Source: Pseudoalteromonas translucida KMM 520 (GTDB lineage Bacteria; Pseudomonadota; Gammaproteobacteria; Enterobacterales; Alteromonadaceae). From it: 32,000 nucleotides of DNA. The position numbers were made by a program, and so were the translations under genes. How positions within the stretch are numbered: position 1 is the first letter of the stretch; each line of letters starts with the position of its first letter. The stretch lies in contig NZ_CP011034.1 of assembly GCF_001465295.1 (NCBI RefSeq), positions 1,410,001 to 1,442,000 on the forward strand, in the 5' to 3' direction. The notes beneath the pieces were generated by a model, which was not told where the DNA came from, did no database searches, and was given only the letters and a program-made list of their open reading frames with translations. Below, one piece after another: positions 6,332 to 21,923 of this stretch.

Positions 6332-7213
6332 ATGTCAATGAAAGTAGCATTTATAGGTTTAGGCGTAATGGGTTACCCAATGGCGGGGCATTTAGCAAAA
6401 GCAGGGCACAGTGTGTGCGTTTATAACCGTACTCAAGCTAAAGCTCAAAAGTGGGCTAACGAATTTAGCGGCAACTTTGCAGCCACTCCACGCGAAGCTG
6501 TAAACGGTGCCGACATTGTATTTATGTGTGTGGGTAACGACGACGATTTACGCTCGGTAGTATATGGCGAAAACGGGGTATTAGCCGGTATTAAAGCAGG
6601 CAGTATTTTGGTCGATCATACTACTACTTCAGCTACAGTGGCGCGCGAAGTGGCAGCAAAAGCGGCGTTATTAAAAGTCGACTTTATTGACGCGCCAGTA
6701 TCGGGTGGTCAAGCTGGCGCCGAAAATGGCGTGCTTACAGTAATGGCTGGTGGCAGCGAAACTGTATTTGCTAAAGTGCAGCCTGTTATGACGGCATTTA
6801 GTCGTTTCAGCCAATTGTTAGGTGGCGTAGGCTCGGGGCAATTATGTAAAATGGTTAATCAAATTTGTATTGCGGGTGCAGTACAGGGCTTAGCCGAAGG
6901 CTTACATTTTGCAAAGCAAGCAGGGCTTGATGGTGAAAAAGTAATAGAAACTATTTCTAAAGGCGCTGCCGGTTCGTGGCAAATGGAAAACCGTTACAAA
7001 ACCATGTGGGCAGGGGAATACGACTTTGGTTTTGCAGTTGATTGGATGCGTAAAGACTTAGGCATAGCGCTAGATGAGGCGAAAAATAACGGTGCAACGC
7101 TAGCAATGACAGCCACAGTAGATGGGTATTACGCCGATGTGCAAGCATTAGGCGGTGGCCGCTACGATACATCAAGCTTACTTGCACGCATTGAAGCACA
7201 GCATAAAAAATAA
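6332..7213 (+). CDS. NAD(P)-dependent beta-hydroxyacid dehydrogenase (3-hydroxyisobutyrate / 2-hydroxy-3-oxopropionate reductase family)
   Basis: 293 aa. N-terminal Rossmann motif KVAFIGLGVMGYPMAGHL, DAPVSGG and the conserved K in MVNQ..; architecture typical of the MmsB/GarR family. The exact substrate cannot be called. Confidence 0.8.
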   Translation: MSMKVAFIGLGVMGYPMAGHLAKAGHSVCVYNRTQAKAQKWANEFSGNFAATPREAVNGADIVFMCVGNDDDLRSVVYGENGVLAGIKAGSILVDHTTTSATVAREVAAKAALLKVDFIDAPVSGGQAGAENGVLTVMAGGSETVFAKVQPVMTAFSRFSQLLGGVGSGQLCKMVNQICIAGAVQGLAEGLHFAKQAGLDGEKVIETISKGAAGSWQMENRYKTMWAGEYDFGFAVDWMRKDLGIALDEAKNNGATLAMTATVDGYYADVQALGGGRYDTSSLLARIEAQHKK

Positions 7214-7374
7214 CGTTTACGTTGAGTATATCGTTGTAGACGCCAAGCTTGCGTGATGTGCAAAGCCCGTAAAGTGATTTATTCACAAAGAGGTTAAGAG
7301 ACGCTGCGCTTTTAGAGAAAGTGATAGATCTAAAAAGATCATTGTTGGTTTTATGTCTTCTCATTTACTTAAAA

Positions 7375-7416
7375 CAAAAAACGCGACGCTTTAGTTATAA
7401 AGCGTCGCGTTTTTGT
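7375..7416. terminator. Strong bidirectional rho-independent terminator
   Basis: Perfect 13-bp stem: ACGCGACGCTTTA (7381-7393) pairs with TAAAGCGTCGCGT (7398-7410), with loop GTTA. An A-run lies upstream and TTTT downstream. It sits between the convergent dehydrogenase and sbcB genes. Confidence 0.85.
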
Positions 7417-7445
7417 ATGCCTTGTACCAATAAACTTAAAGCAAG

Positions 7446-8897
7446 CTACATGCTTTGTGCGTAGTTATATAAGGCTTTTAAAATGGTTAGGTTTTTTTCA
7501 CTGTCGTCATGCTCATGGGCTAAATTTTCAAGCGTGATCATAAAGTCTTGAGCGTTAATTGAGGGTTGATCTTCCCCGTGCATTAACTTGTTTTGACAAT
7601 ACTGACGCCATTGATCCAGTTCTTGCTGGTTAAGCGTTTGCGGCCAGTTACGAGCGCGGTATCTAAACAATAAAGTATTAAACTTTTTATCTTCAAAATC
7701 GAGTTTTAAATCGGCTAAGTCTTCGGGTTTTGCATCGCGAATAATCGCAAATTTAGCTTTGTCAGCATGGCTAGTAAACCCATCGTAAAGTAAATAGTCA
7801 ACGTTAGTTGTTGCGCTGTAATCGCCTTGCTCGTTAAACACCTCAGTTACTTTATCGCGCAGCTCGCTATTGCCTTTTAACACCGCCAGGTTTTTTAAAC
7901 ATTGCTCGCGGTCAATGCCTAAACGCGCTGCATTTTCAGGTAATAACGTTTTAGCAGGTGCTAAAATAGGGCACTTGTTTAAATGCACTAGTTTTAATCC
8001 TACTGGTAACTCGTCTTCAGCTAAATCAATACGCTTGGTATATAAACGTTTACGTAATTGCTCAACACTTAAATCAATAAGTACTTGTGGGCTTTGAATT
8101 AAATCAAAACAAATTACGGCATTTTTATTTACCGGATGAAAGCTCATAGGTGCAACCCAGCTAGTGCAGCCTTGGGTTGCTGGAATGCGTGAGCTGGTAT
8201 GCACAAGCGGGGTCATGTTAAATACATCAACCAACTCAGCTAAGGCTTTTTTACCGCGTAAACTAAAAAAGAAGTTATACAGCTTTGGCTGCTTGTCTTT
8301 TATTAGTTTAGCCAGTGCAATAGTAGCGGTTACATCGCTTAGTGCATCGTGCGCCGCAGCGTGTTCAATACCGTTGGCAACGGTTAAATGCTCTAACTTA
8401 AAGCTTGGACTACCGTCTTCTTTTAACGGCCATTCAATGCCCTCTGGGCGCAGTGCATAACAAGCACGTACTAAATCAATAATGTCCCAGCGGCTATTGT
8501 TGTTTTTATATTCACGCTCGTACGGGTCGTAAAAGTTACGGTAAAAGCTATAACGGCTTACTTCGTCATCAAACCGAATACTGTTATAACCAGCTACACA
8601 GGTATTTGGCATACTAAATTGTGCATGAATTTTTGCTATAAATTCAGCCTCAACCAAGCCTTTTTTCATCGCCACTTGTGGCGTAATGCCGGTAATTAAA
8701 CACGCCTCAGGGTGCGGTAAGTAATCCGCCTGCGGTTTACAGTATTCAATAAGCGGCTCACCAATAATATTTAAATCAAGATCGGTACGAACACCCGCAA
8801 ACTGGCTCGGCTTATCCTTTTGCGGACTAGCCCCCCAGGTCTCGTAGTCGTGCCAGTATATTGTAGGTTGTGTTTCGTGGTATGTTGGTTCGCTCAT
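7446..8897 (-). CDS. sbcB: Exodeoxyribonuclease I
   Basis: 483 aa. N-terminal DEDDh exonuclease block IYWHDYETWG, HDALSDV (the H-x4-D motif), and overall length and architecture like E. coli SbcB. Confidence 0.9.
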   Translation of the reverse strand: MSEPTYHETQPTIYWHDYETWGASPQKDKPSQFAGVRTDLDLNIIGEPLIEYCKPQADYLPHPEACLITGITPQVAMKKGLVEAEFIAKIHAQFSMPNTCVAGYNSIRFDDEVSRYSFYRNFYDPYEREYKNNNSRWDIIDLVRACYALRPEGIEWPLKEDGSPSFKLEHLTVANGIEHAAAHDALSDVTATIALAKLIKDKQPKLYNFFFSLRGKKALAELVDVFNMTPLVHTSSRIPATQGCTSWVAPMSFHPVNKNAVICFDLIQSPQVLIDLSVEQLRKRLYTKRIDLAEDELPVGLKLVHLNKCPILAPAKTLLPENAARLGIDREQCLKNLAVLKGNSELRDKVTEVFNEQGDYSATTNVDYLLYDGFTSHADKAKFAIIRDAKPEDLADLKLDFEDKKFNTLLFRYRARNWPQTLNQQELDQWRQYCQNKLMHGEDQPSINAQDFMITLENLAHEHDDSEKNLTILKALYNYAQSM

Positions 8898-8984
8898 TCT
8901 ATCTCTTAGCCCTTTTGTAATGCGGGTTTTTAGTGCACTTTAATTTGTTGTTGTATCTTTGCGTGTGTTGTAATCTGCGCATTG

Positions 8985-9027
8985 TGTGTATAATATTGTG
9001 TATAAATTTTTTGCTAACTGTGTATAA
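8985..9027 (+). repeat. Three direct copies of TGTGTATAA immediately upstream of int
   Basis: Exact 9-mers at 8985-8993, 8997-9005 and 9019-9027, with start-to-start spacing of 12 and 22 bp. They end 9 nt before the int start codon. Function is unknown; candidates are integrase arm-type sites or stacked -10-like elements (the first copy contains TATAAT). Confidence 0.6.
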
Positions 9028-9035
9028 AATATTAA

Positions 9036-10256
9036 ATGGCAATCAGTGACACCAAATTAAGAAAGCTGCTAGATAAAAATCAAACACCGTGCGTATTATC
9101 GCATAGAGACAGTTTAAGTGTAAGAGTATCAGCCAAAGGCACAATCACTTGGCAGTATCGTTGTCGCGTGGATAACAAACAAGTAATAATATCGCTTGGA
9201 CGTTATCCAGGGCTAAGTATAAAAGAAGCGCAAGACTACATACCACTACTTCAAAACTGGCTAAGCCAGGATAAAGACCCACGAACCGAACTAAAGCTTA
9301 TGCGTAACCAAGCCAAAGGTTTGCCAACAATGGCAAAAGTGGCAACCGACTGGTTAAATAAAAAAGTACCCGACCTAAAAGAAAAAACCCAAACTTTATA
9401 CACAAACCAAGTGGGCAAATGGATAGTGCCGCTTTTAAATGACGAAGCAATGCCACTCGACCTAATGACCATAAAAGACTGGTTTATTTATTTTGATAAA
9501 GTTAAAGAGCAAGGCAGCGCCAAAACTGCCGGCACAATATTAGTGCGCATAAAATCAATAATAGGCTGGGCCGAAAAACGCGGTGAAGCAAAACCATTTA
9601 ACCCAGTACTAACCTTAAACGTAAACGACGTAGGCGAACAAGCAACAATAGGCCAGCGCGTAATGCGCTTTGATGAAATAGCAAAACTGTGGATACAAAT
9701 AGAAAGCTCAAAAGCCACGCCAGCTACCAAAGCATGTTTGCAATTAATTTATATAACAGGCGCTAGGCAATCAGAAGTTCGCTTGGCCAAGTGGGAGCAT
9801 TTCGACTTTGATAACAACATTTGGACAGTACCGCCCGAAAACTCAAAAACAAACCAAGCCATACGCAGGCCAATATCTAAAAAAATGCACAGCATATTAA
9901 ATACACTTGCCATGGTTTACGGCAAAAGCGGCTATTTAATACCGGGCAATAACCCGCGCAAACCAGTAACCACCCACAGCATAAACCGTTACTGCTGCAG
10001 AATGTGGGATCACTTGTTTACTAAGTACAAAACACCCAAGTTTTTACCACATGACGCCCGCCGTTCAATATCAACATTACTCAGCGAAAACGGCATAGCG
10101 CCACACGTAACAGAAAAAATGCTAGGCCACACAATGCGTGGAGTAATGGCAATTTATAACAAACACGACTGGATAAAAGAGCAGGCTGAAGGGTACGAAC
10201 TATATTGCCAATTCATAGATAAGGCGATAGAAAATGAATTTGTAAAGAGCAATTAA
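9036..10256 (+). CDS. int: Tyrosine recombinase / phage integrase, P4-like (N-terminal DUF4102-type arm-binding domain)
   Basis: 406 aa. N-terminus ISDTKLRKL...SLSVRVSAKGTITWQYRCRV is typical of P4-family integrases. Catalytic residues are in order: TGARQSEV (R), HDARRS (H-x-x-R), MLGHT (H) and AIYNKH (Y). Confidence 0.9.
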   Translation: MAISDTKLRKLLDKNQTPCVLSHRDSLSVRVSAKGTITWQYRCRVDNKQVIISLGRYPGLSIKEAQDYIPLLQNWLSQDKDPRTELKLMRNQAKGLPTMAKVATDWLNKKVPDLKEKTQTLYTNQVGKWIVPLLNDEAMPLDLMTIKDWFIYFDKVKEQGSAKTAGTILVRIKSIIGWAEKRGEAKPFNPVLTLNVNDVGEQATIGQRVMRFDEIAKLWIQIESSKATPATKACLQLIYITGARQSEVRLAKWEHFDFDNNIWTVPPENSKTNQAIRRPISKKMHSILNTLAMVYGKSGYLIPGNNPRKPVTTHSINRYCCRMWDHLFTKYKTPKFLPHDARRSISTLLSENGIAPHVTEKMLGHTMRGVMAIYNKHDWIKEQAEGYELYCQFIDKAIENEFVKSN

Positions 10257-10367
10257 CTTTGAATCATAAAGTGTAGTAATATCAAATAGTATATAGTCGG
10301 AAAAGAGGTTAAAGTGTTGTTAACTTCTAATATCTCTCGTTAAATACTTACTGTAAAGGAATATGTA

Positions 10368-10712
10368 ATGAATTACCTGTTTTCAGCTATAGATCCAAGT
10401 TATGTTCATAAAGATTTATTTGGGATTGGAGCGATTTTTGATTTAGAAAATGGTCAACAGGGATGGAGTGAAATTCAAGATATAACAGTCGGAGATAAAG
10501 CCGCTGTAATTAATGTGAAACGCAATATCCCAGTTCTATATGAAGTTACAAAAATCGAAAAGTCAGATAAACAGATCGTCGTTTTTGGAAGAGTGATAGA
10601 CAGAATTGATATGAATTATGAAAAGTTTATTCGCCAACATAATATTACTAGCAGTCGTATAAGTTCCAATCATCAGATGATGCAAGGCTTTAATTTGGCT
10701 ATATGGAAATAA
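10368..10712 (+). CDS. Hypothetical protein (cargo island gene 1)
   Basis: 114-aa ORF behind SD AAGGA, in a very AT-rich region. Looks like a beta-strand-rich small soluble protein. No motif recognised. Confidence 0.55.
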   Translation: MNYLFSAIDPSYVHKDLFGIGAIFDLENGQQGWSEIQDITVGDKAAVINVKRNIPVLYEVTKIEKSDKQIVVFGRVIDRIDMNYEKFIRQHNITSSRISSNHQMMQGFNLAIWK

Positions 10713-10850
10713 ACCCTAACAAAATAAATCTATAATATTTATTTGCAAATGACAGTGATTTTAAATGATCCATTGTGCTTATATATTAGGTAGATAATTT
10801 TAAGTCTGTAAATAATTTTTATTCAATTAATTAAAATCTTAGGAGCTACT

Positions 10851-11261
10851 TTGAACAACAAACTTATTGGTGACTCGGGCGAATACTTCGTCTCATATAA
10901 TTTATCCCGAAGAGGGTTATCTTGTGCTCTTATGAACAATGGAGCAAAAGGCGTAGATATTCTTGTTACCGACGATGGAAAAAGCGTTGTTAGCATTCAG
11001 GTTAAAACCTCTCAAGGAAAGTCTCAGCCTAGACAGTGGATGGTTGGAAAGAACGCGCCGAGTGCTTCCAATAATTTTTTCTTCGTTTTTTGTAATATTT
11101 GGAAGGATTTCGACAAGGCCCCTGAGGTATTCATTATTCCTAGTCAGTACGTCAAAGATAATGTCAATTGGGACTCCACAGCCCCCTTATTTAAGATAAC
11201 ACCAGAGGTTGCAGATAAGTATCGAGAAAATTGGGAACAAATACTTGCACTCTTTATCTAA
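10851..11261 (+). CDS. Small PD-(D/E)XK-like (Hjc/restriction-endonuclease-fold-like) protein, putative nuclease (cargo island gene 2)
   Basis: 136 aa. TTG start 5 nt after a strong SD, AGGAG at 10841-10845. GDSGEYFVSYNLSRRG...GVDILV...VVSIQVKT gives an E11...D36...Q50-x-K52 arrangement on an alpha-beta-beta-beta pattern compatible with a minimal PD-(D/E)XK core. The fold call is by eye only. Confidence 0.5.
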   Translation: MNNKLIGDSGEYFVSYNLSRRGLSCALMNNGAKGVDILVTDDGKSVVSIQVKTSQGKSQPRQWMVGKNAPSASNNFFFVFCNIWKDFDKAPEVFIIPSQYVKDNVNWDSTAPLFKITPEVADKYRENWEQILALFI

Positions 11262-11391
11262 ATGTAATTGATTAATATGCTGGTTGTATTGACCCACTAA
11301 TAAAGGTAGCAAACTGTGGTATATCCATATTATTAATTATAAATAGATAACTAAAACATTTAACAATGTGTTGATATATTAAGGGATTAAA

Positions 11392-12432
11392 GTGTCGTCG
11401 AGTGAAGAGCAATTAGATAGACTGTCTGCAGCCGCAAAAAAAAATAATAACATTACCGAGAAAATAGTTGAGAGAACAGTCACATTTTCTCAGGTTTGGT
11501 TTACTTTAATAGCACCTATCATAATAGGTGTTGCAGCTACTTATTTCACTTCTGATAAAAAAGATGATTTAGGCGGTTTAGTAATCGCACTTATTTGTAT
11601 AGTCATAGTTGGTTTTATAATAGTACATATTTTTCTATCATATATAAGCCATGAATATAGTAAAAAAGAGTCTTTATATGCTGAAATCGTAGACATGAAG
11701 CATCAAAAAGATCAAGAAGTTGGAAAATTAAGAAGTGAGTTAGCACAAAATAAATTAGGTCTTAGGAGGATAACTGATTTATATAGCAATCAAATATCAA
11801 GCCTTTACTTATCTGCGCATGCTACAGATATAGCAATAGGTGACTTAAAGAAAATGGAAATTGATGATAAAAATGTCACAGAAGATGATTTTTGGAATAA
11901 AGTAACAACCTCATTAAGTCCAATATTGCAACCACTTATTATTGAACGAGAGTCGTTATTTGGCTTCAAATCTGAAGGGAAGTATAATGTGGCTTTATAT
12001 TTTTATGATGCTGACGATGATGATTTAGGTATTGTTTGGAGGGATTGTGATAGCCGCTTACCTCAAAGGAATAGAAATTGGAAACCAGGGCATGGACATG
12101 TTGGGCTAGCATTTTTACACAAAGAGGCAAAGTTTTGTCCTGATATCACAATGAGTAGTGAGCTTAACCCAAGCTATACGAGTAGCGATGGTTCTAATTA
12201 TAGAAGTTTTATATCAATACCTATACTTAGATGTGATGATAATGGAGAAATGCTTGAAAATGATATGAAGCCGTTAGGAGTATTAGTTCTAACGAGTGCT
12301 AAACCGGAGCAATTCATAAAAGAAAGAGATTTGCGCTTTCTTACTATTATTTCTAAGCACCTTGCCATATACTTATCATCAGTAGAAACATTTTTAAGTC
12401 ACAATGTGTTGATTGAAAATGATGCAGAATAA
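11392..12432 (+). CDS. 2TM membrane protein with coiled coil and C-terminal GAF-like domain (cargo island gene 3)
   Basis: 346 aa. GTG start behind SD AAGGGA. Two hydrophobic helices: VWFTLIAPIIIGVAATYFT and LVIALICIVIVGFIIVHIFLSYI. A charged heptad-like segment follows (KESLYAEIVDMKHQKDQEVGKLRSELAQNK). The C-terminal ~150 aa show a GAF-like pattern: GHGHVGLAFLHKEAKFCPDI ... YRSFISIPIL ... PLGVLVLTS ... FIKERDLRFLTIISKHLAIYL. Confidence 0.6.
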   Translation: MSSSEEQLDRLSAAAKKNNNITEKIVERTVTFSQVWFTLIAPIIIGVAATYFTSDKKDDLGGLVIALICIVIVGFIIVHIFLSYISHEYSKKESLYAEIVDMKHQKDQEVGKLRSELAQNKLGLRRITDLYSNQISSLYLSAHATDIAIGDLKKMEIDDKNVTEDDFWNKVTTSLSPILQPLIIERESLFGFKSEGKYNVALYFYDADDDDLGIVWRDCDSRLPQRNRNWKPGHGHVGLAFLHKEAKFCPDITMSSELNPSYTSSDGSNYRSFISIPILRCDDNGEMLENDMKPLGVLVLTSAKPEQFIKERDLRFLTIISKHLAIYLSSVETFLSHNVLIENDAE

Positions 12433-12434
12433 GG

Positions 12435-12632
12435 ATGGGTAGATTTATGAAAGAAAAAAATAATGTTAAAAAACAAAATCAAAATCAAAGTAATGCTTCT
12501 ACAGAATCTTTAAGTATGTCTCAAGGTCTAGAGCTAATTAAGGCTATCAAGAACGAGCCCTCTAAAGTAGATGAATGGTTTAGTAAGCAAAGGTTAGAGA
12601 TGCACAAGTTTGCCAATACCTTAGTTAATTAA
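12435..12632 (+). CDS. Small hydrophilic protein, translationally coupled to the GAF protein (cargo island gene 4)
   Basis: 65-aa ORF starting 2 nt after the upstream stop (TAAGGATG). Rich in N, Q and K at the N-terminus, with a helical C-terminus. A terminator follows immediately. Coding status is less certain because of its size. Confidence 0.4.
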   Translation: MGRFMKEKNNVKKQNQNQSNASTESLSMSQGLELIKAIKNEPSKVDEWFSKQRLEMHKFANTLVN

Positions 12633-12636
12633 TATA

Positions 12637-12657
12637 GCCCGCCAAGCGGGCTTTTTT
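12637..12657 (+). terminator. Rho-independent terminator closing the cargo cassette
   Basis: GCCCGC-CAA-GCGGGC followed by TTTTTT, 5 nt after the stop codon at 12632. Confidence 0.85.
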
Positions 12658-12764
12658 GTGCCGGTATAAATGTCACCTCGGGCCAAACGGCCCAACCTTG
12701 TTTTAACCTTAACGGTAACTTAGTATATAAGTTTGCAATATTATGGAAAATAAAAGGATTAGGC

Positions 12765-13355
12765 ATGTTAAAAATTATTGGTTGGGTATTAGGTATTGTA
12801 GCAATTGGCTTTGTGGGTATGTACTTCGACAAAGGCGAGTTTTTAGCCGGGTTCGTTTGTGTGCTAGCAATTGGTTTTTTAATACCGCCGTTGTTAAATA
12901 AAATAAATAAAAACAGCAAAGAAAGCGCAGAAAAAAAAGGCAAAGAATATAAAGAGCTAACGCCAAAATCCAGTATCATCGGTGGCGTTGTGTTGCTTAT
13001 AATTGCAGCTATCATGGGTAATGGAAGTAGCAACAATGAACAAGTAGCATTACCAAGCTGGTATGACAGTAGCGCAACAGAGCTAGTATCAAAAAAAGCA
13101 TCTGATTGGCACAAAGCAACCGACTCACAAAAGCTATCAGCAAGCGCAGATATAATTTATACAGTATGGAAAGATGGTAAATTAAAGCCAAAAATCAGCA
13201 ATAAAATTAAAAGCGTTGACGACATAAAGCCATTTGCTAATGGCCTAGCAAAAGAATTAGATAAAGCTTTTGATGGCAGCCCATCAGAAACAGGCGCTAA
13301 CCCAGCCATTAAAGAAGGAGCTGTTACGCTACTAGTTCTTAATGGATGGATATAA
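12765..13355 (+). CDS. Membrane protein of unknown function (stand-alone moron; possible superinfection-exclusion type)
   Basis: 196 aa. SD AAGGA lies 6 nt before the ATG. Three hydrophobic segments in the first ~90 aa (IIGWVLGIVAIGFVGMYF, FLAGFVCVLAIGFLIPPLL, IIGGVVLLIIAAIMG), then a soluble K/D-rich domain. Bracketed by two terminators. The opposite-strand ORF 12629-13114 was rejected. Confidence 0.65.
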   Translation: MLKIIGWVLGIVAIGFVGMYFDKGEFLAGFVCVLAIGFLIPPLLNKINKNSKESAEKKGKEYKELTPKSSIIGGVVLLIIAAIMGNGSSNNEQVALPSWYDSSATELVSKKASDWHKATDSQKLSASADIIYTVWKDGKLKPKISNKIKSVDDIKPFANGLAKELDKAFDGSPSETGANPAIKEGAVTLLVLNGWI

Positions 13356-13373
13356 ATAAACACCAAACAAACA

Positions 13374-13396
13374 GCCCGCACTTAGCGGGCTTTTTT
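13374..13396. terminator. Rho-independent terminator (probably serves both the moron and the convergent CI gene)
   Basis: GCCCGC-ACTTA-GCGGGC followed by TTTTTT. It lies between the stop at 13355 (+) and the stop at 13416 (-). The stem and tail are identical to those of the terminator at 12637. Confidence 0.8.
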
Positions 13397-13415
13397 GTGC
13401 CTGCAATTTAGCAAA

Positions 13416-14036
13416 CTAAAACGACTTACCTGCAAATATTATTTTACCTACCAACGTACAGTTGCCGTTTATTGCTATTAGTTGTTCTGGCCAGTTAGGG
13501 TTAGCTGCTTTTAAAAACTTTTGGCCGCTTTCAATTATAAGCTGTTTAAAGGTGGCTTCGTTGTTGTCATCTAAACGCGCTACTACGTACGAACCGTGTA
13601 TGCACTCGGCTTCAGGGTCCACAAAAATTAAATCGCCCTCATAAAATTTAGGCTCCATGCTCACGCCTTGCACTTTCAATACAAACGTTAGATCACTGCA
13701 ATTAACTGGGCACATAAAGCGTTCGGCATCATAGGCTTTAATTTCGCTAATTTCAGACCATGCACCTGCTTGTACCCAGCTTATAAGCGGGGCAGTTGCC
13801 TTAATTGCTGGTCCTGGCGAAACGTTACTATTTATGTTTTCAATTACACCAAATTGCAAAAATTCAGGAGTGCACTGTAACGCTTTTGCTAGTTCATTTA
13901 TTTTTTTAGTAGTTTTAGTTGTTCCATCTTCAATCCTTTGGAGTGATTGCTGAGCTATCCCAATCATTTCTGAAAGCTTAACTTGAGTTAAATCTAGTTC
14001 TTTTCTTCTTTCTTTTACTCTTTTTCCAATGCTCAT
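13416..14036 (-). CDS. CI-type prophage repressor: XRE HTH plus LexA-like S24 autopeptidase domain
   Basis: 206 aa. N-terminal HTH is RRKELDLTQVKLSEMIGIAQQSLQRIEDG. The C-terminal S24 domain carries the catalytic Ser block VQGVSMEPKF and the Lys in LVGKIIF. It is divergent from a Cro-like gene. Confidence 0.9.
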   Translation of the reverse strand: MSIGKRVKERRKELDLTQVKLSEMIGIAQQSLQRIEDGTTKTTKKINELAKALQCTPEFLQFGVIENINSNVSPGPAIKATAPLISWVQAGAWSEISEIKAYDAERFMCPVNCSDLTFVLKVQGVSMEPKFYEGDLIFVDPEAECIHGSYVVARLDDNNEATFKQLIIESGQKFLKAANPNWPEQLIAINGNCTLVGKIIFAGKSF

Positions 14037-19399: not shown

Positions 19400-19426
19400 G
19401 GCTGACATGGGATGTCGGCCTTTTTT
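19400..19426 (+). terminator. Rho-independent terminator ending the early/replication operon
   Basis: GGCTGACAT-GG-GATGTCGGCC stem (one G.U pair) followed by TTTTTT, and preceded by AAAAAA. Confidence 0.8.
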
Positions 19427-19501
19427 ATGCCTGAAATTCATAGACTTTATTTACACCGGAATGTTATATAGATACGCAATTTTAAAAATGGATTCAACGG
19501 A

Positions 19502-20254
19502 ATGCTTAAGTGGTTAGATAAATGTTTAGATAATTTAAAATCCCCTTATTGGGAGTTTTACATTTTAGTGGGGGCTGTGATATTTGGTATTTCAGGTAGT
19601 ATTGTTATTTTTATTGACCCAAATGGGTCAGCTGAAAAGTTTAATAATATAGCAAGTTTCTTAGGTGGCTTGTTTACTGTTATTGGTGTGATCATTGCTT
19701 TTATTGCATATGAAAGAAGTAAAGTGCAGCACAAAAAAAATAGACTATTAGATATTCAATCAGAAATTGAGTTTGAGATACTTCCTAAACTAGTAAATAG
19801 CATGAATTCCTGTTTACACCATGGGGTTTATTCGTTAAGGGTAATAAGGAATGGTGAGGCAATCAACAATGAAACCATTACTAAAATATTAAAAAATATA
19901 GATGAACTAAGCATAATTAGGAAAGAGCTTGAGACTAAAACTGGATATTTAAATAAATTAGGTGGTTTGAAAAGTAATTATGAAGATAGCTATGAAGAAC
20001 TTAATTTATTAATATGTATGATAATTCATTTGTATAAAGCTCAAATTGAATACATAAAATCAGAACCTAAAAAACTAGAAGAACTAGAACTTCGTTTAAA
20101 AATGGCTTTTAGCACTTATCCTTTTTTCTCACGTTATGTTGTAAATGTAATAGAAAGCGATAAAGAACACATTTCAAAGGTGTTATTAATGCGTTGTAAA
20201 CTCGAATCTAAGATATCAGATGTTTATAAATACTATGGCTTAAAGCCCAATTAA
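19502..20254 (+). CDS. 2TM membrane protein with helical cytoplasmic domain (second cargo slot; candidate exclusion/abortive-infection protein)
   Basis: 250 aa in an extremely AT-rich segment (one 60-nt line counted by hand gave 20% GC). Two hydrophobic helices: FYILVGAVIFGISGSIVIFI and FLGGLFTVIGVIIAFIAY. The remainder is K/E/L-rich and helical. It sits between the replication module and the Ogr-like/portal genes, the position of tin/old in P2. Confidence 0.6.
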   Translation: MLKWLDKCLDNLKSPYWEFYILVGAVIFGISGSIVIFIDPNGSAEKFNNIASFLGGLFTVIGVIIAFIAYERSKVQHKKNRLLDIQSEIEFEILPKLVNSMNSCLHHGVYSLRVIRNGEAINNETITKILKNIDELSIIRKELETKTGYLNKLGGLKSNYEDSYEELNLLICMIIHLYKAQIEYIKSEPKKLEELELRLKMAFSTYPFFSRYVVNVIESDKEHISKVLLMRCKLESKISDVYKYYGLKPN

Positions 20255-20485
20255 CTCTAACTGTTGTTCTCGAGGTAAATTTTTAATAAGCGCTGCCGCT
20301 AATTGTTGTGTGCTTTGTACCGGAGGGTTTAAGAAGTGATCAAACGATTGGGTAATGCGAAACGTTGCCCCGCACTCGCGAGTATTAGTGCAAGAGCAAT
20401 ATAAATTTACTACGTGCGCACTTTGCGTTTCACGCGATGTAATCGTAGCTTTAGCTTCGCAATTCGGACAAGTAACCCGCGCCAT
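20240..20485 (-). CDS. Ogr/Delta-family zinc-finger transcriptional activator (late gene activator-like)
   Basis: MARVTCPNCEAKATITSRETQSAHVVNLYCSCTNTRECGATFRITQSFDHFLNPP. From memory this aligns with P2 Ogr: CPxC...TSR...Y-x-C-x-N-x2-C-x-ATF-x-T-x-S. I prefer the ATG at 20485, behind SD GGTGA. The tracked ORF extends to 20497. Confidence 0.8.
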   Translation of the reverse strand: MARVTCPNCEAKATITSRETQSAHVVNLYCSCTNTRECGATFRITQSFDHFLNPPVQSTQQLAAALIKNLPREQQLELIGL

Positions 20486-20513
20486 AATATTCACCAATCG
20501 TTAATAAAGTACA

Positions 20514-20529
20514 CTGTCATTATATACAG
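20514..20529. promoter_or_regulatory. Canonical LexA (SOS) box overlapping the -10 of the Ogr-like gene promoter
   Basis: CTGT-CATTATAT-ACAG (CTGT-N8-ACAG) lies inside the longer perfect inverted repeat TACACTGT/ACAGTGTA (20510-20533). On the minus strand the same DNA reads TTGTTA-N17-TATAAT, about 30 nt upstream of the Ogr-like start. Confidence 0.7.
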
Positions 20530-20590
20530 TGTATTTGTGCATAACAAATAAGCATTTACAAATAGCCGCAATATACCTAAAATAAATTAA

Positions 20591-20608
20591 TTATCACTTA
20601 AGTGATAA
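20591..20608. promoter_or_regulatory. Perfect 18-bp palindrome (operator candidate) just downstream of a promoter-like element
   Basis: TTATCACTT|AAGTGATAA. It lies 8 nt after the candidate promoter TTTACA (20555-20560)-N17-TAAAAT (20578-20583) and 20 nt before ATG 20628. Confidence 0.55.
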
Positions 20609-20627
20609 GTAATTTGAGGGTTTTAGC

Positions 20628-20900
20628 ATGCAATATTTATATAAAGGGTCACAAAGCCAAGAGCGATTAGATTGGTTATTCGCTATGTGTAAAATTAAAA
20701 GTGCCGACATAAAAGCCGCCGCGAGCGATCATCTAGTAAAAGGCATAAGCAAAACCCATGCAGCACTGTTAAATAACGTACCCGCGCCAAATTTAACGCG
20801 AGCATTAAAAACCTTAAATACCTATGCCGAATTAGTCGAAAAAATAAAAGCGCACGATGCGCAGCATAGCCAGTACTACGCTTTACGCGCTGGGCTCTAA
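20628..20900 (+). CDS. Small regulator-like protein, possibly PapB/FaeB-family HTH
   Basis: 90 aa. LDWLFAMCKIKSADIKAAASDHLVKGISKTHAALLNNVPAPNLTRALKTLN resembles the PapB-family layout (helix, xDyLVxG, HTH, then a second helix). This is a weak call by eye. Its 3' end overlaps the portal 3' end by 18 nt. Confidence 0.35.
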   Translation: MQYLYKGSQSQERLDWLFAMCKIKSADIKAAASDHLVKGISKTHAALLNNVPAPNLTRALKTLNTYAELVEKIKAHDAQHSQYYALRAGL

Positions 20901-21923
20901 ATCAAAATTTAGCTGTAACTTACTGCCTATTTCAGGATCCCTTGCTACTTCATCACTCATTAATTTAATAAGCGGTTTAGTCTCGTTTTTAAAATACATG
21001 GCGTCGTATTTAGTTGGGTCGCCAAGGCCTGCATTGTTGGCCGGAATAATACCCGCCAAGCCCGGCGGAAAACGGTGGGCGTTTAATATATCTTGCGCCG
21101 ATACGTTTTTAACATTCATAAACTCGTCTTTACTTTCAAAGTTACCCACAGGAATTATTTGTAAGCCTTTTTCTTTACCGTTGGGTATGTTTACAAACAA
21201 CGAGCGAAAGTTACCCACGCCTTTACTGTCTGAAATTTTTTGCTGTAGTTCTTCTTCAACGTCAGCGTCTAAGTTAGGATCAGTCGCGTACATAATAAAA
21301 CCCATGTGCGCACCGTTTAAAAAATACTTACGGCGGAATAGCGTAGCGTCTTCATTTAATAACGTGGCTTGTAAGCCCCCTAAGTAATCGGCCAAACCAT
21401 ACACTTGCTGCACTGGGTCGTACTGGCGAACCCAAATAATATCGCGCTTTTTATATTTTTTAACTTGGCTATTACGCTCAAGCACCACCGCGCCACCATC
21501 ACCACCAACACGAGTACGGTAACTAGGCAGCGGAAACAACCTTACAATTTGCCCAAAGCCATTACGTATTTTAAGTAGTGCCACATCACCAAATTGCACC
21601 AAGTTTAAAAAGCCTGCTTGTACTTGCTGTGCACTCATACCGCCACTAATAAAACGGCTAGCCGCCATATTGGCACGGCTTTGCACTATGCCGCCGTGCT
21701 GGGCATTACGCCGTGTTAAGTTTGCTAATAAATGGCGGTCTACTGGCGGCTCCCAATAATTATCCATATCGTTATAAAAAAGCGAGTCGTAATCGGTTAG
21801 CCACATATCTGGCATTACTTGCTCAGGCAAGCCAAACACAACGGGCGCATTTTTATTATCTGGTTGATCGTGTGGCTGGTCTGTTAACTGCTCAGCGGTT
21901 TGGTCTAATTCTGCATTATCCAT
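20883..21923 (-). CDS. Portal protein, P2 GpQ family
   Basis: 346 aa (from memory P2 Q is about 344 aa). It lies immediately downstream of the large terminase, overlaps it, and is divergent from the scaffold and capsid genes. This is the canonical P2 Q-P / O-N-M-L layout. Confidence 0.85.

Follow-up and report, generated by a model that had tools for sequence, protein, structure and literature searches.

A predicted membrane-anchored GAF protein and its small partner as a conserved two-gene cargo module of a P2-like Pseudoalteromonas prophage

The P2-like (Peduoviridae) prophage whose insertion site adjoins sbcB in Pseudoalteromonas translucida KMM 520 carries a block of cargo genes between its integrase and its repressor, which an original prediction from the sequence alone had taken for a single undescribed anti-phage or abortive-infection system of four genes. 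We have analyzed this block, whose products we call p114, p136, p346, and p65 after their lengths in amino acids (aa), within a stretch of 32,000 nt (NZ_CP011034.1, 1,410,001-1,442,000; hereafter "the window", to which coordinates refer unless another locus is named). The speculative four-gene system gives way to a sharply bounded two-gene module at 11376-12656 encoding p346, which is PTRA_a1541 of the same strain (100% identity) and is predicted to join a membrane hairpin to a cytoplasmic GAF domain, together with its small partner p65. Its recurrence across genomes shows this pair to be one conserved bicistronic module and the sole conserved unit of the block. We tentatively read it as a toxin-antitoxin (TA) or abortive-infection type module, a reading that we consider a good possibility but somewhat short of probable.

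A conserved pair of genes

When the cassette was compared by blastn with a locus of Pseudoalteromonas sp. ASV78 (L003), similarity of 76% identity was confined to 11376-12656, and we therefore delimit the putative mobile unit by this interval; the one further match of the L003 locus in the window is a repressor remnant at 13416-13662. At every one of 18 places, the GAF gene is directly followed by an open reading frame (ORF) of 59-78 aa; these are the window and 17 other loci that comprise genomes (L003-L007), IMG/VR viral contigs (L010-L017), a metagenome (L018), and three distant family members found by exact look-up with down to 21% identity to p346 (L019, L030, L032). Scans for further loci with sub-alignments returned one metagenome locus, one truncated viral locus, and otherwise known contigs; one such scan of viral contigs came back empty.

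The two genes are tightly packed throughout, with −44 to +25 nt between the stop of the GAF gene and the start of the small ORF. Of the 18 places, 13 have the genes overlapping (1-44 nt), and five show the 4-nt "ATGA" overlap that is typical of translational coupling. A hidden Markov model of the small protein built without the window and L003 ranked p65 best among the 164 ORFs of the window (E = 3e-6, with 0.03 for the runner-up). Furthermore, the pairwise identities within the p346 and p65 families are correlated (Mantel r = 0.90, 0 of 5000 permutations), from which we conclude that GAF gene and small gene have been inherited together. The original prediction had described p65 as a translationally coupled ORF of 65 aa; the ORF is present and a real conserved partner, but RefSeq starts it later, at the second ATG (12447), which leaves 61 aa. 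As an adjacent, co-directional, and conserved pair that is patchily distributed on mobile elements, the two genes have the arrangement that is generically expected of type II-like TA modules.

Table 1. Features of the cargo slot and its borders (window coordinates)
Feature	Coordinates	Strand	Basis
Host sbcB	7446-8897	minus	Identity read from translation; adjoins integrase
Tyrosine integrase, left border of cargo slot	9036-10256	+	Pfam Phage_integrase E = 2e-21, Arm-DNA-bind_3
p114, orphan 114-aa cargo protein	10368-10712	+	ORF, AAGGA 8 nt upstream
p136, predicted minimal PD-(D/E)XK nuclease, 136 aa	10851-11261	+	TTG start; predicted fold and motif
Putative conserved two-gene mobile unit (ribosome-binding site, p346, p65, terminator)	11376-12656	+	blastn homology to L003
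p346, predicted N-terminal helix, hairpin of two transmembrane segments, long coiled-coil helix, cytoplasmic GAF	11392-12432	+	GTG start; 346 aa
p65, hydrophilic small partner, proposed antitoxin or regulator	12435-12632	+	ORF; 65 aa
Intrinsic terminator closing p346/p65 module	12636-12660	+	Hairpin and T-run; inside L003-conserved block
p196, membrane protein, separate cargo gene	12765-13355	+	phrog_23065 E = 9e-24; hydrophobic N-terminal half
LexA/CI-type repressor, right border of cargo slot	13416-14036	minus	Pfam Peptidase_S24 E = 6e-26, HTH_3

A GAF domain behind a predicted membrane hairpin

Profile matches and the predicted fold place the C-terminal half of p346 in the GAF domain superfamily. 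Residues 202-328 match Pfam GAF_2 (E = 8e-9; 36.2 bits with a cut-off of 28.6), and Pfam GAF is also reached with 29.0 bits (cut-off 22.4). In an AlphaFold2 model built from 22 homologues (pLDDT 85.6), two helices (3-53 and 62-91) carry two hydrophobic, predicted transmembrane (TM) segments; then come a helix of 63 residues (95-157), another helix, and an alpha/beta domain (199-337). The top Foldseek matches of this domain in the PDB were GAF domains only, with E-values down to 2e-8, and include fRMsr/YKG9, the cAMP-binding GAF of Lcd1, and the GAFs of phosphodiesterases (PDEs) and phytochromes. The original prediction of a 2TM hairpin, a coiled coil, and a GAF-like domain is borne out by these results.

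When a profile was run against 1.84 billion cluster representatives (clusters at 50% identity), at least 525 relatives of p346 were found at E <= 1e-3, of which 335 reach E <= 1e-10. They are mostly 290-350 aa long and match from end to end, and hydropathy profiles reveal two N-terminal hydrophobic segments and a GAF motif near residue 200 as a family-wide rule. In an alignment of 88 family members, Pro42 is present in 85 and His/Gln79 in 84 sequences, both inside the predicted TM helices, which suggests that the membrane part is more than a passive anchor. Near-invariant residues of the GAF domain are R217, R228, W230, a G-x-G-H-V-G motif, D266, Y270, S272, T301, and S302. No cysteine is found among the invariant or >=90% columns of the same alignment; the cysteine of the "RDCD" motif varies, and fRMsr-type catalysis is therefore unlikely despite the matching fold. 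An assignment of p346 to SLATT or another named class of 2TM effectors found no Pfam match at E <= 1.

Prophages, Tn7-like elements, and a defense islet

The slot between integrase and repressor holds the pair in three P2-like elements, i.e., the window, L003, and L010, and the latter two share the layout of the window in which the pair is followed by a convergent S24 repressor gene. In the Pseudomonas prophages L006, L011, L013, L014, and L015, the pair is found between a Dcm-type methylase and the integrase. Two Pseudoalteromonas genomes (L004 and L005) have it between glmS and the Tn7-like tnsABC genes, with a truncated tnsA in one of them. There, the GAF pair occupies positions 8000-9200 of the locus, on that side of tnsA which faces glmS and at which Tn7 usually carries nothing but its right end. 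L004 encodes a further protein of 317 aa between glmS and tnsA (6956-7909) that is without Pfam or PADLOC match.

The L003 locus contains, at 7186-13002, a decayed PY3-type prophage of ca. 6 kb with host genes on both sides, named after Pseudoalteromonas phage vB_Psp_PY3, which together with phage C5a is kin to the prophage of the window. Its integrase is left as two fragments that are 83-85% identical to residues 194-273 and 292-393 of PY3 Int, and its repressor is shortened to 88 aa. What survives is the GAF pair alongside a complete IetAS system (PADLOC IetS E = 6e-246, IetA E = 1e-123); at this locus, a P2-like prophage has decayed and been domesticated as a defense islet. The defense or abortive-infection role that had been proposed for the entire block of the window is plausible for part of it only, and it is the pair beside which IetAS is found in this slot.

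What the pair may do

We tentatively favor a TA or abortive-infection type module because of the strict pairing with coupling, the contexts in mobile elements and defense islands, and the retention in decayed elements, and because the sole characterized protein of such a layout, toxFtsL(D9), is a toxin. In a module of this kind, p346 would be anchored in the inner membrane by its 2TM hairpin with the conserved Pro and His/Gln, would probably dimerize via its long helix, and would hold its GAF domain in the cytoplasm. p65 would be made in fixed proportion through translational coupling and would keep p346 inactive. Infection by another phage would then release p346, either through loss of the fast-evolving and partly disordered p65 or through a ligand or phage protein that binds the conserved GAF pocket, and released p346 would damage the membrane or block division so that no phage emerges from the infected cell. 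The toxicity of p346, its neutralization by p65, the trigger, and the anti-phage effect are what we infer from these comparisons.

The toxin toxFtsL(D9) of Gelidibacter mesophilus (NetFlax, WP_027127282.1) is a protein of ca. 281 aa with a TM segment, a helical region that is FtsL-like and dimerizing, and a GAF domain. It is a validated toxin that is neutralized by PanA, the product of the adjoining gene, and causes filamentation and lysis without depolarization (PMC10440598). The p346 family has the same order of parts (TM, helix, GAF), a comparison in which the toxin is taken by its description only. Among the candidates considered, a wider word-indexed search with the profile of 88 sequences brought no further named distant relatives of p346, and no hit bearing the name Gelidibacter came up, including in cluster look-ups of family members with 289-300 aa. 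The partners differ in that toxFtsL(D9) is paired with a Panacea (DUF4065) protein, whereas the partner of p346 family members is an unrelated protein of 59-78 aa and p65 is without Pfam match.

A more general likeness exists to RexAB of phage lambda, RosmerTA, Kiwa, and the 2TM effectors of CBASS and Pycsar, which are likewise borne by prophages or islands close to lysogeny or integrase genes and likewise consist of two genes that bring together an effector in the inner membrane and a sensing part in the cytoplasm. However, PADLOC shows no match between the pair and these systems in sequence or profile, and the pair departs from membrane-effector abortive-infection pairs in that GAF sensor and membrane part are fused in one protein. 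As for the possibility that the pair is a CBASS or Pycsar effector, no cyclase or CD-NTase was detected among the neighbors scanned. These comprised all five cargo genes of the window by Pfam, selected flanks in L003, L004, L006, and L010-L017, the precomputed Pfam families of L019, L030, and L032, and L005, L007, and L018 as ORF lists only.

Several observations weigh against a TA or abortive-infection module. The gene order with the large protein first is less common in type II TA modules, and p65 shows no DNA-binding or known antitoxin domain in Pfam, PADLOC, PHROGs, or NCBIfam. Similarly, none of the models in PADLOC v2, many candidate systems among them, represents the pair, and the same search recovered IetA/IetS (L003) and PDC-S31 (L020) as positive controls. 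The partner of p346 was never swapped in the 18 places, unlike what is seen for toxFtsL with the Panacea antitoxin. Furthermore, distant members in L007, L019, and L030 reside among ordinary chromosomal genes without mobile-element signature, so that a housekeeping sensor fits these contexts as well as a TA module does. Finally, the absence of an internal terminator in the cargo block means that co-transcription and some interplay of its genes may occur in this phage.

It is on these chromosomal contexts that the strongest alternative for the pair builds, which we nevertheless consider unlikely: p346 could be anchored in the membrane as a sensor of small molecules and p65 could regulate it, for example in stress or envelope signaling, with the pair carried as ordinary fitness cargo outside of any conflict. 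GAF is a classical ligand sensor whose close structural matches here include the cAMP-binding GAF and fRMsr, the family of 525 clusters is large and old, L007, L019, and L030 place the pair between housekeeping genes without marks of mobile elements, and p346 is without recognizable enzymatic or pore-forming effector domain in Pfam. Such a sensor would, however, lack any kinase, cyclase, or DNA-binding output domain for signaling, and fRMsr-type catalysis is unlikely for want of a conserved cysteine, as noted above. A non-conflict function also sits poorly with the patchy distribution of the pair as recurrent prophage cargo, with its Tn7-like neighbors and its retention by IetAS in a decayed prophage, and with the one characterized protein of the same architecture being a toxin.

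Less likely again is superinfection exclusion in the inner membrane of the lysogen, where the pair would block DNA entry or an early membrane step without killing the cell. This would suit a prophage-encoded, predicted inner-membrane protein from the lysogeny region whose orientation permits expression in the lysogen and whose gene is integrase-proximal in eight IMG/VR viral contigs, but the pair also adjoins Tn7-like genes or lies in ordinary stretches of chromosome, settings that give less reason to exclude phage relatives. The conserved mass of p346 is nearly all cytoplasmic (GAF domain and long helix) rather than periplasmic, and known exclusion proteins do not typically come with a small partner in the cytoplasm that is strictly conserved and co-evolves with them.

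To the same low degree we credit the idea that the 2TM-GAF protein is a new ligand-gated defense effector whose GAF pocket senses an infection molecule or phage protein without any dedicated cyclase, with p65 as a plug in the manner of P-gamma. The GAF domain of PDE6 is regulated by this small and largely disordered inhibitory subunit, and PDE6 GAFs are among the Foldseek matches of p346. The likeness of p346 and p65 to PDE6 GAF and P-gamma is one of analogy since PDE6 is a eukaryotic enzyme and the partners are not homologous. If this idea were true, the family of ca. 525 clusters would be a widespread unnamed two-gene immune system of prophages and other mobile elements.

A small nuclease that travels alone

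p136 belongs to the PD-(D/E)XK nuclease superfamily according to its structural model, which is in line with the nuclease-like character that the original prediction had read from an E...D...QxK arrangement. This membership rests on the predicted fold because sequence-level Pfam matches stay below threshold. The AlphaFold2 model (pLDDT 89.2, pTM 0.86) has a PD-(D/E)XK fold, and its best Foldseek matches are I-Ssp6803I, archaeal Hjc resolvases, the SPARDA nuclease domain, NhoI/Eco15I, and EcoRV (TM-scores of 0.5-0.66, query-normalized). E11, D36, and Q50-V-K52 are invariant across 25 homologues. Weak matches to PDDEXK_5 (Pfam E = 0.05), YraN, and DUF6998 were below family thresholds; PDDEXK_5, the family of I-Ssp6803I, is the sole Pfam similarity of p136. 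Searching solved structures with the p136 profile gave no sequence-level match even at E <= 10, and among PHROGs the protein falls into a family of unknown function (phrog_29029, E = 5e-45). p136 thus resembles endonucleases such as I-Ssp6803I, Hjc, and NhoI in predicted fold, invariant E11, D36, and K52, and a similar size of 130-160 aa. It differs from them by a Gln instead of the acidic residue in (D/E)xK, by sub-threshold sequence similarity, and by the lack of an intron context or a partner methylase.

Homologues of p136 never adjoin a GAF gene or p114 but are found in four other settings. In Vibrio arrays (L008 and L009), the homologue is a single-gene cassette with repeats of ca. 121-130 nt flanking each gene; these arrays (L008 7-3096, L009 475-3786) consist of short same-strand genes with repeats of the TAACAAA...GCGTTA type, a layout typical of the chromosomal integron cassettes of Vibrio. 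In Mu-like prophages of Aeromonas (L020-L022, 5001-6407), it is inserted between mor and the lysis genes. The gene that follows it immediately downstream encodes a DUF2971 protein with a match (E = 5e-24) to PDC-S31, a PADLOC candidate system. In lambdoid prophages of enterobacteria (L034-L036, 4001-5212), its orientation is opposite to that of the phage genes around it. Its neighbors there are the small terminase gene on one side and, on the other, a gene whose product has an Acb2/Tad1-type hairpin domain; Acb2/Tad1 is a family of anti-CBASS/anti-Thoeris sponges, so that cargo of defense and counter-defense type occurs in one slot. In a Shewanella genomic island, finally, the homologue is accompanied by a UvrD-like helicase, DUF6998, and umuDC-like genes. 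By its homologues, the family thus comprises integron cassettes and single-gene "morons" (the copy in the window is without attC-like repeats), and p136 appears to be a solitary, minimal endonuclease of the PD-(D/E)XK type whose gene spreads by itself.

Such a gene could be either a one-gene restriction-like defense or a selfish homing-type nuclease. That p136 is a homing endonuclease of the free-standing kind, serving its own spread and not the protection of the host, strikes us as doubtful, though less so than the alternatives weighed for the pair. Its best structural match is the PD-(D/E)XK homing endonuclease I-Ssp6803I, to whose family the Pfam similarity points as well, but NhoI and Eco15I (methyl-directed restriction) and the SPARDA defense nuclease are equally good structural matches. 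Likewise, its occurrence as a lone gene at many unrelated sites, at one of them on the strand opposite to the phage genes, would suit a homing element, but the integron cassette form moves via attC recombination instead of homing, and homologues adjoin candidate defense genes (PDC-S31 in Aeromonas and the helicase/DUF6998 island in Shewanella).

A stack of independent acquisitions

The block at 10257-12660 has a GC content of 33.0%, compared to 44.4% in the remaining prophage and 40.4% in the host flank. It ranks second lowest among 296 sliding 2.4-kb windows, and all of these below 35% GC overlap it. The compositional foreignness noted in the original prediction is therefore real, though the GpA-like gene used there for comparison has 46.5% rather than ca. 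52% GC. The position between integrase and CI repressor was also correct, with both borders supported by Pfam. The slot between them varies among related phages: PY3, whose repressor shares 80% identity with that of the window, has just one gene in it, of 369 aa and unrelated, and the gene set of C5a differs again and includes a homologue of p196. No tRNA gene was present in a scan of the window.

The anatomy of the block is likewise as had been described. All four same-strand ORFs have a credible ribosome-binding site (a purine-rich Shine-Dalgarno sequence 6-9 nt upstream), the spacers before p114, p136, and p346 measure 111, 138, and 130 nt (110-140 bp had been given), and the strong terminator that closes the block is a hairpin at 12636-12652 with a 7-bp stem of which 6 pairs are G-C, a 3-nt loop, and a T6 run. 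No terminator precedes 12636 from p114 through p65. A promoter scan found 14 candidates compared to 15.3 expected from shuffled sequence and hence not above chance. Repeats within 10200-13450 were limited to a duplicated terminator tail, with no attC-like repeats and no insertion-element ends. An Rfam scan of 10000-13500 gave only sub-threshold matches on terminator hairpins and therefore no sign of an RNA antitoxin.

Searches for known systems agreed with the expectation that no named defense system would match. PADLOC-DB v2.0.0 was negative for p114, p346, and p65 and gave chance-level matches only for p136 (E = 0.02-0.04), and it was also negative for p196 and for the L010 homologue. Across PADLOC, PHROGs, and NCBIfam, the five cargo proteins had no system-level match, and their strong matches were to phrog_29029 (p136) and phrog_23065 (p196) only, both of them families without assigned function.

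p114 or p136 stands beside a p346 homologue in none of the 17 other loci, as assessed by tblastn in L003-L007 and, in the other 12, from gene tables and the sizes of the ORFs that surround the pair; in addition, L010-L019 have no DNA similarity to window positions 10257-11375. Homologues of the four genes were not found together in independent loci. Furthermore, p136 homologues stand alone in the four other mobile contexts described above, and the architecture of nuclease plus membrane effector on which the original prediction had built its single module is therefore a chance juxtaposition. It is highly improbable that all four genes (10257-12660) are a single new defense system in which the p136 nuclease and p346 work together, since their common strand without terminator until 12636, their shared low GC, and the recurrence of the order int-p114-p136 in two metagenomic contigs are outweighed by the failure to find p114 or p136 beside p346 homologues at the 17 other loci, by the lone p136 homologues in integron cassettes (with ca. 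125-nt repeats) and in Mu-like and lambdoid prophages, by the deviating GC content of p136 (39.9% compared to 31-33% in the adjoining cargo genes), and by both contigs being the same prophage (94-97% nucleotide identity) rather than independent cases. The caveat of the original prediction that the genes could be independent morons proved apt for p114 and p136 but not for p346 and p65, which are a genuine conserved pair. We conclude that 10257-12660 is a cargo slot holding three unrelated units (p114, p136, and p346 with p65), i.e., a cargo hotspot in which independent acquisitions have piled up, and these units may or may not share a transcript.

p114, rightly described as being without recognizable motif, reaches no curated threshold in Pfam, PADLOC, PHROGs, or NCBIfam and has no homologues in phage genomes or IMG/VR. 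Elsewhere, it occurs only in the two metagenomic contigs of the same prophage lineage. Its distribution suggests that it is a lineage-restricted orphan and an independent cargo gene.

A fifth cargo gene on the same strand, p196, is located between the four-ORF block and the repressor and had been omitted from the original prediction. Its product is 44% identical to gp10 of phage C5a, whose gene likewise adjoins the C5a repressor, and ten near-identical copies are present in Pseudoalteromonas genomes and metagenomes. A near-copy of the terminator at 12636 follows 3' of p196 at 13373-13391, so that p196 is bracketed by two terminators (12636-12662 and 13373-13401) with common stem arms (AGCCCGC/GCGGGCT), differing loops, and an identical 18-nt 3' part (AGCGGGCTTTTTTGTGCC). 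The second of them is bidirectional and common to the repressor gene. These paired terminators look like a duplicated junction that arose from cargo insertion beside the terminator of the repressor.

Outside of this slot, a second AT-rich island (19400-21000, 33.9% GC) lies just past the GpA-like replication gene and is probably a further cargo slot. PADLOC found nothing for any of its three ORFs (19502-20254, encoding 250 aa; 20628-20900; and 20857-21387), and Pfam found nothing for the 250-aa ORF, the sole one scanned.

Significance

p136 offers a testable one-gene candidate whose family spans integron cassettes, Mu-like, lambdoid, and P2-like prophages, and a Shewanella genomic island. The pair of p346 and p65 amounts to 1.3 kb and is a cheap-to-clone candidate for a new toxin-antitoxin or abortive-infection family, though candidates of this general sort are common. 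It is absent from the libraries of defense and phage families that we searched (PADLOC, PHROGs, and NCBIfam), and full-text literature searches brought up no account that links a 2TM-GAF protein with a small partner to phage defense. Read as a TA or abortive-infection module, the pair is a further type of membrane-toxin module with a partner unlike PanA, set apart from toxFtsL:PanA by description. Its study could reveal a role of GAF sensors in the conflict of phages and bacteria, for which toxFtsL with its other partner is the only one of these proteins that has been studied.

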